The notes under the pieces are model-generated. The model worked only from the letters and a program-made list of their open reading frames with translations. It did no database searches and had not been told where the DNA came from. A stretch of DNA of 3,552 nucleotides from sequence record PP430141.1, one strand, 5' to 3'. This DNA comes from Enterobacteria phage FrSaffron. The translations under genes were made by a program, and so were the position numbers. Below, piece by piece: positions 1-3,552 of the stretch (its first letter is position 1; the number at the start of each line of letters is the position of its first letter).

Positions 1-5
1 GGGTG

Positions 6-23
6 GGACCCCTTTCGGGGTCC
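6..23 (+). promoter_or_regulatory. 5'-terminal stable hairpin (replication/packaging element of the plus strand)
   Basis: Seen in sequence: GGACCCC (6-12) pairs with GGGGTCC (17-23) around a UUUC loop (13-16), giving 7 consecutive pairs. The helix can extend with G-U pairs toward 1-5/24-28. Its role is established knowledge for MS2-like phages. Confidence 0.7.
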
Positions 24-115
24 TGCTCAACTTCCTGTCGAGCTAATGCCATTATTTATGTCTTTAGCGAGACGCTACCATGGCTATCGCTGTAGGTAGC
101 CGGAATTCCATTCCT

Positions 116-121
116 AGGAGG
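116..121 (+). promoter_or_regulatory. Shine-Dalgarno sequence of the maturation gene
   Basis: AGGAGG at 116-121, about 8 nt upstream of the ATG at 130. Confidence 0.8.
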
Positions 122-129
122 TTTGACTC

Positions 130-1311
130 ATGCGAGCTTTTAGTGTCCTTGATAAGGAATCCGAGACCTTTGTTCCTTACGTCCGCGTTTACGCTGACGG
201 AGGGATTGAGGATAACTCGTTTTCTCTAAAATACCGTTCGAACTGGACTCCTGGTCGTTTTAAGTCGACTGGGGCCAGAACGAAGCAGTGGCACTACCCG
301 TCTCCCTACTCTAGGGGGGCGCTTAGCGTCACGTCGGTAGATCAAGGCGCCTATAAGCGCTCAGGGTCATCGTGGGGTCGCCCGTACGAGGAGAAAGCCG
401 GTTTTGGCTTCTCGCTCGACGCACGCTCCTGCTACAGCCTCTTCCCTGTTAGTCAGAATCTGACTTACATCGAAGTGCCGCAGAACGTTGCGAATCGGGC
501 GTCGACCGAAGTCCTGAAAAAGGTTACCCAAGGCAATTTCAACCTTGGTGTGGCCTTAGCAGAGGCTAGGTCGACAGCCTCACAACTCGCGACGCAAACC
601 ATTGCGCTCGTGAAGGCGTACACTGCCGCTCGTCGCGGCAACTGGCGCCAGGCGCTCCGCTATCTCGCCCTAAACGAAGATCGAAAATTCCGATCAAAAC
701 ACGTGGCCGGCAGATGGTTGGAGTTGCAGTTCGGCTGGCTACCGCTCATGAGCGATATCCAGGGCGCATATGAGATGCTTACGAAGGTCCACCTTCAAGA
801 GTTTCTTCCTATGAGAGCCGTGCGTCAAGTAGGCACTAACGTCAAGTTAGACGGCCGCTTGTCGTATCCAGCTGCAAACTACCAGACTACGTGCAACATA
901 TCGCGACGAATCGTGATATGGTTTTACATAAACGATGCACGCTTAGCCTGGTTGTCGTCTCTAGGTATCTTGAACCCACTAGGAATAGTGTGGGAAAAGG
1001 TGCCTTTCTCATTCGTTGTCGACTGGCTCCTTCCTGTTGGAAACATGCTCGAGGGCCTTACGGCCCCCGTAGGATGCTCCTACATGTCTGGAACAGTTAC
1101 TGACGTAATAACGGGTGAGTCCATTATAAGCGTTGACGCTCCCTATGGGTGGACAGTGGAGAGACAGGGCACTGCTAAGGCCCAGATCTCAGCCATGCAT
1201 CGAGGGGTACAATCCGTATGGCCAACAACTGGCGTATACGTAAAGTCACCTTTCTCGATGGTCCATACCTTAGATGCGTTAGCATTAATCAGGCAACGGC
1301 TCTCAAGATAG
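130..1311 (+). CDS. mat: Maturation (A / assembly) protein, the pilus-binding minor virion protein
   Basis: 393-aa ORF starting MRAFS..., ending with TAG at 1309-1311. Position, length and sequence match the MS2 A protein as I recall it. Strong SD upstream. Confidence 0.93.
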   Translation: MRAFSVLDKESETFVPYVRVYADGGIEDNSFSLKYRSNWTPGRFKSTGARTKQWHYPSPYSRGALSVTSVDQGAYKRSGSSWGRPYEEKAGFGFSLDARSCYSLFPVSQNLTYIEVPQNVANRASTEVLKKVTQGNFNLGVALAEARSTASQLATQTIALVKAYTAARRGNWRQALRYLALNEDRKFRSKHVAGRWLELQFGWLPLMSDIQGAYEMLTKVHLQEFLPMRAVRQVGTNVKLDGRLSYPAANYQTTCNISRRIVIWFYINDARLAWLSSLGILNPLGIVWEKVPFSFVVDWLLPVGNMLEGLTAPVGCSYMSGTVTDVITGESIISVDAPYGWTVERQGTAKAQISAMHRGVQSVWPTTGVYVKSPFSMVHTLDALALIRQRLSR

Positions 1312-1324
1312 AGCCCTCAACCGG

Positions 1325-1347
1325 AGTTCGAAGCATGGCTTCTAACT
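1325..1347 (+). promoter_or_regulatory. Coat-gene initiator hairpin with the AUG in the apical loop
   Basis: Seen in sequence: AGTTCGAAGC (1325-1334) pairs with GCTTCTAACT (1338-1347) with one C/U mismatch (1329/1343). The loop is AUG (1335-1337), the coat start codon. This matches the known MS2 coat initiation hairpin. Confidence 0.7.
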
Positions 1348-1727
1348 TTACTCAGTTTGTTCTCGTCGACAATGGCGGAACTGGCGACGTGACTGTCGCA
1401 CCAAGCAACTTCGCTAACGGGGTCGCTGAATGGATCAGCTCTAACTCGCGCTCTCAGGCTTACAAAGTAACCTGTAGCGTTCGCCAGAGCTCTGCGCAGA
1501 ACCGCAAATACACCATCAAGGTCGAAGTGCCAAAAGTGGCTACCCAGACCGTTGGTGGTGTAGAGCTTCCTGTAGCCGCATGGCGTTCGTACTTAAATAT
1601 GGAATTAACTATTCCTATTTTCGCAACGAACGCCGACTGCGCGCTTATTGTTAAGGCGATGCAAGGTCTCCTGAAAGATGGAAACCCAATCCCCTCAGCA
1701 ATCGCAGCAAACTCCGGAATCTATTAA
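1335..1727 (+). CDS. cp: Major coat (capsid) protein, also the translational repressor of the replicase gene
   Basis: ATG at 1335 begins MASNFTQFVLVDNGGTGDVTVAPSNFANGVAEWISSNSRSQAYKVTC...SGIY (130 codons). It ends with tandem stops TAA (1725-1727) and TAG (1728-1730). Sequence is recognisably MS2-type coat. Confidence 0.95.
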   Translation: MASNFTQFVLVDNGGTGDVTVAPSNFANGVAEWISSNSRSQAYKVTCSVRQSSAQNRKYTIKVEVPKVATQTVGGVELPVAAWRSYLNMELTIPIFATNADCALIVKAMQGLLKDGNPIPSAIAANSGIY

Positions 1728-1905
1728 TAGATTCCGGCCATTCCAACATGAGGATTACCCATGTCGAAGACAACAAAGAAGTTCAACTCTTTATGTATTG
1801 ATCTTCCTCGCGATCTTTCTCTCGAAATTTACCAATCAATTGCTTCTGTCGCTACTGGAAGCGGTGATCCGCACAGTAGAGACTTTACAGCAATTGCTTA
1901 CCTAA
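1678..1905 (+). CDS. lys: Lysis protein L (single-gene lysis protein), overlapping the coat 3' end and replicase 5' end in the +1 frame
   Basis: 75-aa ORF METQSPQQSQQTPESINRFRPFQHEDYPCRRQQRSSTLYVLIFLAIFLSKFTNQLLLSLLEAVIRTVETLQQLLT. It has a polar, basic N-terminal half and a hydrophobic C-terminal segment (LYVLIFLAIFL...LLLSLL). Coordinates match the MS2 L gene as I recall it. Confidence 0.88.
   Translation: METQSPQQSQQTPESINRFRPFQHEDYPCRRQQRSSTLYVLIFLAIFLSKFTNQLLLSLLEAVIRTVETLQQLLT
1714..1737 (+). repeat. Perfect 24-nt palindrome / RNA hairpin spanning the coat stop codons (coat terminator hairpin)
   Basis: Seen in sequence: CCGGAATCTATTAATAGATTCCGG equals its own reverse complement. As RNA it is a 9-10 bp stem with the coat UAA (1725-1727) and UAG (1728-1730) in and next to the loop. 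Confidence 0.85.
1746..1764 (+). promoter_or_regulatory. Replicase translational operator (TR hairpin; coat-protein binding site and packaging signal)
   Basis: Exact ACATGAGGATTACCCATGT: stem 1746-1750/1760-1764, bulged A1751, pairs 1752-1753/1758-1759, loop AUUA 1754-1757. The replicase AUG (1761-1763) lies within the stem. Identical to the canonical MS2 operator. Confidence 0.92.
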
Positions 1906-3398
1906 GGGATGAGTTGCTTACTAAGCACCCGTCCTTAGGAAACGGTAATGACGAGGCGACCCGCCGGGCTCTAGCTATCGCTAAGCTCCGGGAGGCGAAT
2001 GAGCGTTGCGGCCAGATTAACAGAGAAGGTTTCTTACATGACAAATCCTTGTCATGGGATCCGGATGTTTTACAAACCAGCATCCGTAGCCTAATTGGCA
2101 ACCTTCTCTCTGGCTACCGCTCGTCGTTGTTTGGGCAATGCACGTTCTCCAACGGTGCCTCAATGGGGCACAAGTTGCAGGATGCAGCGCCTTACAAGAA
2201 GTTCGCTGAACAAGCAACCGTTACCCCCCGCGCTCTGAGAGCGGCGCTACTGGTCCGAGACCAGTGTGCGCCGTGGATCAGACACGCGGTCCACTACAAC
2301 GAGTCATATGAATTTAGACTCGTGGTAGGGAACGGAGTGTTCACAGTTCCGAAGAATAATAAAATAGATCGGGCTGCCTGTAAGGAGCCCGATATGAATA
2401 TGTACTTACAGAAGGGAGTCGGTACCTTTATAAGGCGCCGTCTCAAATCTGTGGGTATAGACCTGAATGATCAAACGATCAACCAGCGTCTAGCTCAAAA
2501 GGGTAGCGTAGATGGTTCGTTGGCGACGATAGACTTATCGTCAGCCTCCGACTCCATCTCCGACCGCCTGGTGTGGAGTTTCCTCCCACCTGAGCTATAT
2601 TCATATCTTGACCGCATCCGCTCTCACTACGGAATCGTAGATGGAGAGACGATACGGTGGGAACTATTTTCCACTATGGGTAACGGGTTCACTTTCGAGC
2701 TAGAGTCCATGATATTTTGGGCAATAGTGAAAGCGACCCAGATCCATTTTGGTAACGCCGGAACCATAGGCATCTACGGGGACGATATTATATGTCCCAG
2801 TGAGATTGCACCCCGTGTGCTAGAGGCACTTGCCTACTACGGTTTCAAACCGAATCTTCGTAAAACGTTCGTGTCAGGGCTCTTTCGCGAGAGCTGTGGC
2901 GCGCACTTTTACCGTGGTGTCGATGTCAAACCGTTTTACATCAAGAAACCAGTTGACAACCTCTTCTCCCTTATGCTGATCATGAATCGGCTTAGGGGTT
3001 GGGGAGTTGTCGGAGGTATGTCAGATCCGCGCCTTTATAAGGTTTGGGTACGACTGTCCTCCCTGGTTCCATCGATGTTCTTCGGTGGGACGGACCTTGC
3101 TGCCGACTACTATGTAGTCAGTCCCCCTAATGCGGTCTCAGTTTACACTAAGACTCCATACGGGAGACTACTCGCGGACGCCCGTACCTCGGGTTTCCGT
3201 CTTGCTCGTATCGCAAAAGAGCGTAAGCACTTTAGCGAGAAGCATGACAGTGGTCGCTACATAGCATGGTTCCATACTGGAGGTGAGATCACCGACAGTA
3301 TGAAGTCCGCTGGCGTACGCGTAATGCGTACTTCGGAGTGGCTGACGCCGGTTCCCACATTCCCTCAGGAATGCGGGCCAGCGAGCTCTCCTCGGTAG
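1761..3398 (+). CDS. rep: RNA-dependent RNA polymerase (replicase beta subunit)
   Basis: 545-aa ORF MSKTTKKFNSLCIDLP... ending with TAG at 3396-3398. The catalytic YGDD motif is encoded at 2775-2786 (IGIYGDDIICP). The start codon is embedded in the operator hairpin. Confidence 0.95.
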   Translation: MSKTTKKFNSLCIDLPRDLSLEIYQSIASVATGSGDPHSRDFTAIAYLRDELLTKHPSLGNGNDEATRRALAIAKLREANERCGQINREGFLHDKSLSWDPDVLQTSIRSLIGNLLSGYRSSLFGQCTFSNGASMGHKLQDAAPYKKFAEQATVTPRALRAALLVRDQCAPWIRHAVHYNESYEFRLVVGNGVFTVPKNNKIDRAACKEPDMNMYLQKGVGTFIRRRLKSVGIDLNDQTINQRLAQKGSVDGSLATIDLSSASDSISDRLVWSFLPPELYSYLDRIRSHYGIVDGETIRWELFSTMGNGFTFELESMIFWAIVKATQIHFGNAGTIGIYGDDIICPSEIAPRVLEALAYYGFKPNLRKTFVSGLFRESCGAHFYRGVDVKPFYIKKPVDNLFSLMLIMNRLRGWGVVGGMSDPRLYKVWVRLSSLVPSMFFGGTDLAADYYVVSPPNAVSVYTKTPYGRLLADARTSGFRLARIAKERKHFSEKHDSGRYIAWFHTGGEITDSMKSAGVRVMRTSEWLTPVPTFPQECGPASSPR

Positions 3399-3408
3399 CT
3401 GACCGAGG
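3390..3408 (+). other. Hairpin presenting the replicase stop codon in its loop
   Basis: Seen in sequence: CTCGG (3391-3395) pairs with CCGAG (3403-3407), plus C3390-G3408. The loop TAGCTGA (3396-3402) contains the replicase UAG. Confidence 0.55.
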
Positions 3409-3552
3409 GACCCCCGTAAACGGGGTGGGTGTGCTCGAAAGAGCACGGGTCCGCGAAAGCGGTGGCTCCACCGAAAGGTGGGCGGGCTTCGGCCCAGGGA
3501 CCTCCCCCTAAAGAGAGGACCCGGGATTCTCCCGATTTGGTAACTAGCTGCT
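3399..3552 (+). other. 3' untranslated region, truncated at the window end (lacks the extreme 3' terminus)
   Basis: No ORF; GC-rich and highly structured. It ends ...GGTAACTAGCTGCT, which is the 5' half of the terminal hairpin in MS2 as I recall it. Confidence 0.85.
3431..3495 (+). other. Array of four tetraloop-capped hairpins in the 3' UTR
   Basis: Seen in sequence: GTGCTC-GAAA-GAGCAC (3431-3446), CCGC-GAAA-GCGG (3451-3462), CCACC-GAAA-GGTGG (3468-3481), GGGC-UUCG-GCCC (3484-3495). A further hairpin CCCCG-UAAA-CGGGG lies at 3412-3425. Confidence 0.75.

Follow-up and report, generated by a model that had tools for sequence, protein, structure and literature searches.

In phage MS2, translation of the replicase gene is coupled to translation of the coat gene, as described by Berkhout and van Duin in 1985 and summarised in PMC11339067 and PMC12143590. 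A long-distance helix, the Min Jou (MJ) interaction, keeps the replicase ribosome-binding site masked until it is broken up by ribosomes that translate the coat gene (PMC11339067; PMC12143590), and its two strands are given as positions 1427-1433 and 1738-1744 (PMC12143590; PMC11339067). Replicase translation requires ribosomes to pass the 5' strand, and early nonsense mutations in the coat gene show polarity (PMC11339067). For the phage considered here, Enterobacteria phage FrSaffron, a sequence-only reading had proposed that this helix is present at the MS2 positions with one terminal pair lost to a mismatch. Mismatches in the MJ helix uncouple the replicase.

The FrSaffron genome and its relatives

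The window, by which we mean the whole 3552-nt stretch of FrSaffron DNA that was analysed, aligned to positions 1-3552 of the MS2 reference NC_001417.2 with zero offset and 279 differences (92% identity). It is a near-complete genome, with 17 nt missing at the 3' end relative to the 3569-nt MS2 record. Comparing the list of open reading frames with the MS2 annotation placed all four genes (maturation, coat, overlapping lysis and replicase) at the MS2 coordinates (Table 1). Identity ranges from 92-95% for MS2-like records to 78% for fr, and the nearest relatives, at ~94.5-95%, are the environmental isolates FrHenna, FrBlood, MT830620, DL1, DL16 and J20. In an NJ tree rooted on fr, the window falls within an environmental clade that is separate from a laboratory clade made up of MS2, ST4, R17, M12 and JP501. 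Both the four-gene MS2 arrangement and the high nucleotide identity expected of Emesvirus zinderi (the MS2/fr group I levivirus) are found in the window, which we read as the wild-type genome of an MS2-like levivirus of that species, belonging to its environmental clade.

Several other features of the genome were recorded in passing. An exact-match look-up of the L (lysis) protein of the window returned no match. The maturation gene starts with AUG at 130-132, as it does in R17, M12, JP501 and all environmental isolates; GUG stands there in MS2 and ST4, and apparently in fr too, and the GUG of MS2 is a minority state. At 1878-1880, three adjacent differences from MS2 (GAC to AGA) replace Asp with Arg at replicase codon 40 and Thr with Glu in the lysis protein. 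Since AGA is common to all environmental-clade genomes except MT830620 (GGA), and to JP501 as well, we take it for a lineage marker and not an error.

Table 1. Genes and RNA elements of the FrSaffron window considered in this work
Feature	Positions	Strand	Basis and remarks
Maturation gene	130-1311	+	ORF, coordinates as in MS2
Coat protein gene	1335-1727	+	Inside ORF-list entry 1218-1727; coordinates equal to the annotated coat CDS of MS2 and relatives
Adjacent long-distance helix, 5' strand	1419-1426	+	Contiguous with MJ 5' strand; pairs with 1810-1817; 8/8 pairs in the MFE structure
MJ 5' strand	1427-1433	+	In coat gene, codons GCU-GAA-UGG; G1428-G1433 paired, U1427 unpaired (MFE and RNAalifold consensus)
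Lysis protein (L) gene	1678-1905	+	75-aa ORF, MS2 coordinates; overlaps 1738-1744
Coat-terminator hairpin	1714-1737	+	10-bp stem; coat stops UAA UAG (1728-1733) in 3' arm; MFE
MJ 3' strand	1738-1744	+	Just upstream of replicase operator/RBS; C1738-C1743 paired, C1744 mismatched with U1427
Replicase operator (TR) hairpin	1746-1764	+	Shine-Dalgarno and AUG at 1761; identical to that of MS2; all pairs invariant
Replicase (RdRp beta subunit) gene	1761-3398	+	545-aa ORF, MS2 coordinates; product matches PF03431
Adjacent long-distance helix, 3' strand	1810-1817	+	Inside replicase gene; MFE and RNAalifold

The Min Jou core and the distribution of C1744

Window positions 1427-1434 read TGAATGGA and positions 1738-1745 read CCATTCCA; at the equivalent coordinates the MS2 reference carries CCATTCAA. 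Relative to the Min Jou interaction of MS2, the window thus has an identical 5' strand, UGAAUGG, at the homologous position and six of the seven 3'-strand bases, with CCAUUCC at 1738-1744 where MS2 has CCAUUCA. U1427 faces C1744 and the junction-proximal U-A pair of MS2 is missing, leaving 6 of the 7 MJ pairs, all Watson-Crick. On each of these points the sequence-only reading proved accurate: the MJ coordinates it gave agree with those in PMC12143590 and PMC11339067, the 5' strand is unchanged in the reference alignment, NC_001417.2 carries A and not C at 1744, and the zero-offset alignment puts U1427 opposite C1744.

As expected of an MJ interaction, a coat-gene segment is complementary to a segment directly 5' of the operator and ribosome-binding site, and the two occupy homologous positions in a collinear genome. 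Six-base complementarity alone is statistically unremarkable: GAATGG occurs 3 times over both strands of the window against 1.5 expected, a count reached by 38 of 200 shuffles. For that reason, the case for the helix rests on three other points: it is homologous to the characterised MS2 element, its core is invariant, and unconstrained folding recovers it. A second CCAUUC, at window positions 108-113, closely precedes the Shine-Dalgarno sequence of the maturation gene in the 5' untranslated region, and MS2 is arranged likewise; the genome thus offers the single GAAUGG (1428-1433) two sequences with which it could pair.

Conservation was examined in a gap-free alignment of 1400-1830 comprising 15 distinct sequences, and with RNAalifold on 16 genomes. 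The core pairs G1428-G1433:C1738-C1743 are invariant in 15/15 distinct sequences. Positions 1427 and 1744, in comparison, form a U-A pair in 6 and are unpaired in 9, with no compensating change, and the RNAalifold consensus retains the 6-bp MJ core and an 8-bp neighbouring helix with 1427 and 1744 unpaired. On the 3' side, the invariant block 1738-1743 sits directly between variable positions 1737 and 1744, a suggestive pattern that would delimit a conserved element of 6 bp. Invariance of the 5' strand could be due in part to the Glu-Trp codons it contains, and with no variation in any of the six core pairs, covariation provides evidence neither for nor against the core. Judged from the alignment, the conserved functional MJ core across the species appears to be six base pairs.

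U1427 occupies the third position of an Ala codon (GCU), where a synonymous U1427G (GCG) would restore pairing with C1744. A search for U1427G in the nine C1744 genomes found none, an absence that fits weak selection on the 1427/1744 pair but could also reflect a constraint on 1427 for some other reason.

Among 16 related genomes, C1744 is present in FrHenna, FrBlood, MT830620, DL16, DL52, DL54, J20 and LT898437, and A1744 in MS2, ST4, R17, M12, JP501 and DL1. The eight C1744 genomes resemble the window in clade, in overall identity (~94-95%), in combining U1427 with C1744 and in the 6-bp core; with the window included, 9 of the 10 genomes of the environmental clade carry C1744 in the NJ tree. 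The seventh pair is missing from fr (X15031) too, a divergent member of the species that shares the core GAAUGG/CCAUUC and has C at the 1744 equivalent, but A instead of U at the 1427 equivalent (A·C). Using a census 30-mer in which each 28-nt word spans position 1744, we found the C1744 form in 8 records of the phage collection, all environmental isolates, and the A1744 form in 196, of which laboratory clones make up at least 158. When IMG/VR and the metagenome collection were scanned for CCATTCNAACATGAGGATTACCCATG, each yielded a single contig, and both contigs carried A1744 and were of the laboratory MS2 type. Which base is ancestral at 1744 is equivocal on the NJ tree, where either scenario takes two steps.

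These distributions speak against regarding the mismatch as an anomaly or defect, since environmental MS2-like isolates usually carry C1744, as does fr, and the U-A pair is found in only 6 of the 15 distinct sequences. We consider U1427·C1744 a lineage-wide natural polymorphism that is already in public genomes, and the seventh MJ pair is restricted to the laboratory lineage (MS2, R17, M12, JP501) and DL1. The MJ mechanism is known, as is the C1744 variant from eight deposited natural genomes.

Position 1744 also serves the overlapping reading frame, being the first base of codon 23 of the lysis protein (frame 1678-1905), where A1744C exchanges Lys in MS2 for Gln in the window (K23Q). The choice between A and C might accordingly have been driven by the lysis protein, or be neutral for it, with an effect on the RNA that is incidental and carries no regulatory meaning. 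The N-terminal part of L tolerates changes, and with 1732-1734, 1737 and 1744 varying among isolates while 1738-1743 stay constant, 1744 behaves as a weakly constrained position. K23Q may be equally relevant to why 1744 varies. Such an origin is, however, compatible with a modest weakening of the helix, and the predicted change of 1.5-1.8 kcal/mol exists whatever drove the substitution; that the RNA effect has no regulatory meaning strikes us as possible but unlikely.

Folding of the coat-replicase region and predicted cost of the mismatch

Unconstrained folding of 1400-1830 gave an MFE of -152.5 kcal/mol, with a z-score of -8.4 relative to shuffles. The MFE structure contains 6/7 MJ pairs, which also appear in the centroid, together with 8/8 pairs of the helix 1419-1426:1810-1817 and the terminator and operator hairpins. 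The structural context of the MJ interaction, made up of the operator hairpin and a second long-distance helix next to MJ, is thereby present in the window and is shared with MS2. Rfam family RF02359 ('Bacteriophage MS2 operator hairpin') matches 1729-1764 with 60.6 bits, against a gathering score of 40. The helix 1419-1426:1810-1817, which we take to be the van Duin (VD) interaction, is paired in all cells over the 15 sequences and shows one-sided changes only, from C-G to U-G in fr and from G-U to G-C in GQ153927. In the latter genome ('MS2_ancestral'), U1817C converts G1419·U1817 to G-C, and at the outer end the predicted probability of pairing goes up from ~0.35 to 0.94; a second-site suppressor of this kind has been reported for Min Jou mutants.

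On the other flank, G1737 of the coat-terminator hairpin adjoins C1738, so the hairpin could stack coaxially on the MJ helix. Its pair 1718/1733 covaries across isolates (A-U, C-G, G-C and U-A), and the isolated hairpin is predicted at -13.7 kcal/mol in the window versus -11.5 kcal/mol in MS2. The A1719·C1732 mismatch of the MS2 hairpin is an A-U pair in the window. In the folded model, 1427/1744 would be the junction-closing pair of a three-way junction and not a free helix end.

For the MJ duplex in isolation, the prediction is -7.8 kcal/mol with C1744 and -9.6 kcal/mol with A1744. Within the window, a C1744A back-mutation lowers the ensemble free energy by 1.6 kcal/mol (1400-1830) or 1.5 kcal/mol (1320-1920). 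The predicted probability of the MJ core is 0.81-0.85 in the window versus 0.99 in the back-mutant, and the fraction of the ensemble without any MJ pair, computed under NO_REMOVE constraints, is 0.15-0.26 versus 0.009. Among natural isolates the probability of the core spans 0.84-0.99 with C1744 and 0.92-1.00 with A1744, so that the two ranges overlap. For fr, which differs from the window in having a U·G wobble in the neighbouring helix, A at 1766 and another, weaker terminator hairpin, the folding model predicts no MJ helix in the tested segments, and forcing one costs 1.9-5.7 kcal/mol. Given this result for fr and a non-MJ population of 15-26% in the window, the thermodynamic numbers are only rough; read as such, they predict an MJ helix ~1.5-1.8 kcal/mol weaker in the window than with A1744. 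A slight loosening of coupling by the mismatch, as suggested earlier, is in line with nearest-neighbour thermodynamics at the level of duplex, ensemble and MJ-free fraction, and stands to that extent as a prediction. The accompanying idea that the helix may have shifted or been extended does not apply to the window, where A1434 faces G1737, itself held by C1714 in the terminator hairpin (P 0.94); we rejected a change of register on this ground.

The lost pair might instead be compensated elsewhere, leaving net gate strength unchanged, through a stronger stacked terminator hairpin or through an A1434-U1737 pair in DL16, DL52 and DL54. Along with C1744, these three genomes carry G1737U (at their own positions 1737, 1739 and 1612), which opens the terminator hairpin at its closing pair C1714-G1737 and allows A1434-U1737 to form (P 0.88). 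Their MJ helix is consequently 7 bp long and displaced by one position, whereas the window keeps G1737. Hairpin strength follows the expected pattern within the environmental clade, with -13.5 to -13.7 kcal/mol in genomes that combine a 6-bp MJ with G1737, -10.8 in DL1, which has the U-A pair, and -11.4 in the three G1737U genomes that gain A1434-U1737; the weaker hairpin of MS2 likewise accompanies a 7-bp MJ. This pattern, however, is based on about three independent events and fails outside the clade, where R17 (-15.9) and JP501 (-13.9) have strong hairpins with 7 bp and fr (-6.9) has a weak one with 6 bp. Of the relatives examined, those other than MS2, ST4 and fr have U1732, the base that repairs the MS2 hairpin mismatch, whatever their base at 1744, and the predicted probability of the MJ core still falls in the window (0.84 versus 0.99). 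We regard full compensation as improbable.

It is very improbable that C1744 creates a new or shifted pairing in place of the lost one, either with G1766 or as part of a helix between 1739-1744 and 1906-1911. The MFE structure of 1400-1830 does draw C1744-G1766 as an extension of the operator hairpin, and in 1320-1920 the pairing of 1739-1744 (CAUUCC) to 1906-1911 (GGGAUG), at the end of the lysis gene, reaches P ~0.115 and is gone with A1744. Yet C1744-G1766 is worth only -0.1 kcal/mol (P 0.11-0.12), for which we rejected this extension; the isolated operator hairpin has -6.0 kcal/mol with either base at 1744, and the A at 1766 in fr leaves the pair unconserved. The alternative with 1906-1911 makes up only a minority of the ensemble, in a model whose accuracy is limited. 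That C1744 arose by a sequencing or assembly error can be dismissed: eight deposited isolates, sequenced by independent laboratories, carry it, and a Logan contig (run SRR24145718) is identical to window 1709-3495, although the contig and the window may go back to the same data.

Probable coupling in FrSaffron and the environmental lineage

The reading we prefer, with a probability of roughly 0.85, is that the window carries the ordinary coat-to-replicase coupling device of MS2, and that the U1427·C1744 polymorphism is a modest weakening of it with coupling kept. The 6-bp MJ core (G1428-G1433 with C1738-C1743) would close a coat-gene domain of ~300 nt, its 5' side running on into 1419-1426:1810-1817 and its 3' side abutting the terminator hairpin, and these helices would together enclose the operator hairpin and the replicase start in the three-way junction. 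Ribosomes on coat codons ~29-33 would unwind 1419-1433, and the replicase start would then be exposed. Lying at the junction end of MJ, the mismatch would leave the helix ~1.5-2 kcal/mol weaker and permit somewhat more basal, coat-independent opening, with coupling not lost. From published work on MS2, we infer both that MJ gates replicase translation in this strain and that the terminal mismatch probably changes expression only slightly. As these are viable wild phages, coupling retained with a modestly weaker gate is the most likely outcome.

A further-reaching view would be that environmental MS2-like phages and fr gate with a 6-bp MJ that is measurably leakier than the 7-bp helix of the laboratory MS2/R17 lineage. 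The textbook seven pairs would then be a lineage peculiarity, and replicase dosage would be tuned by single changes at 1744 in the junction or at 1737 on the edge of the hairpin, partly compensated by the strength of the terminator hairpin. We consider this rather doubtful. If leakiness were measured and the view were true, it would illustrate, on a small scale, the tuning of translational coupling in nature.

Beyond bookkeeping, the significance of the variant is small, the coupling mechanism being classic and the variant already deposited. The comparison suggests that the part of the helix conserved across the species is six base pairs long, the seventh pair known from MS2 being confined to the laboratory lineage and DL1. 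MS2-based coupling circuits or reference structure models taken from wild strains should expect a helix ~1.5-2 kcal/mol weaker.
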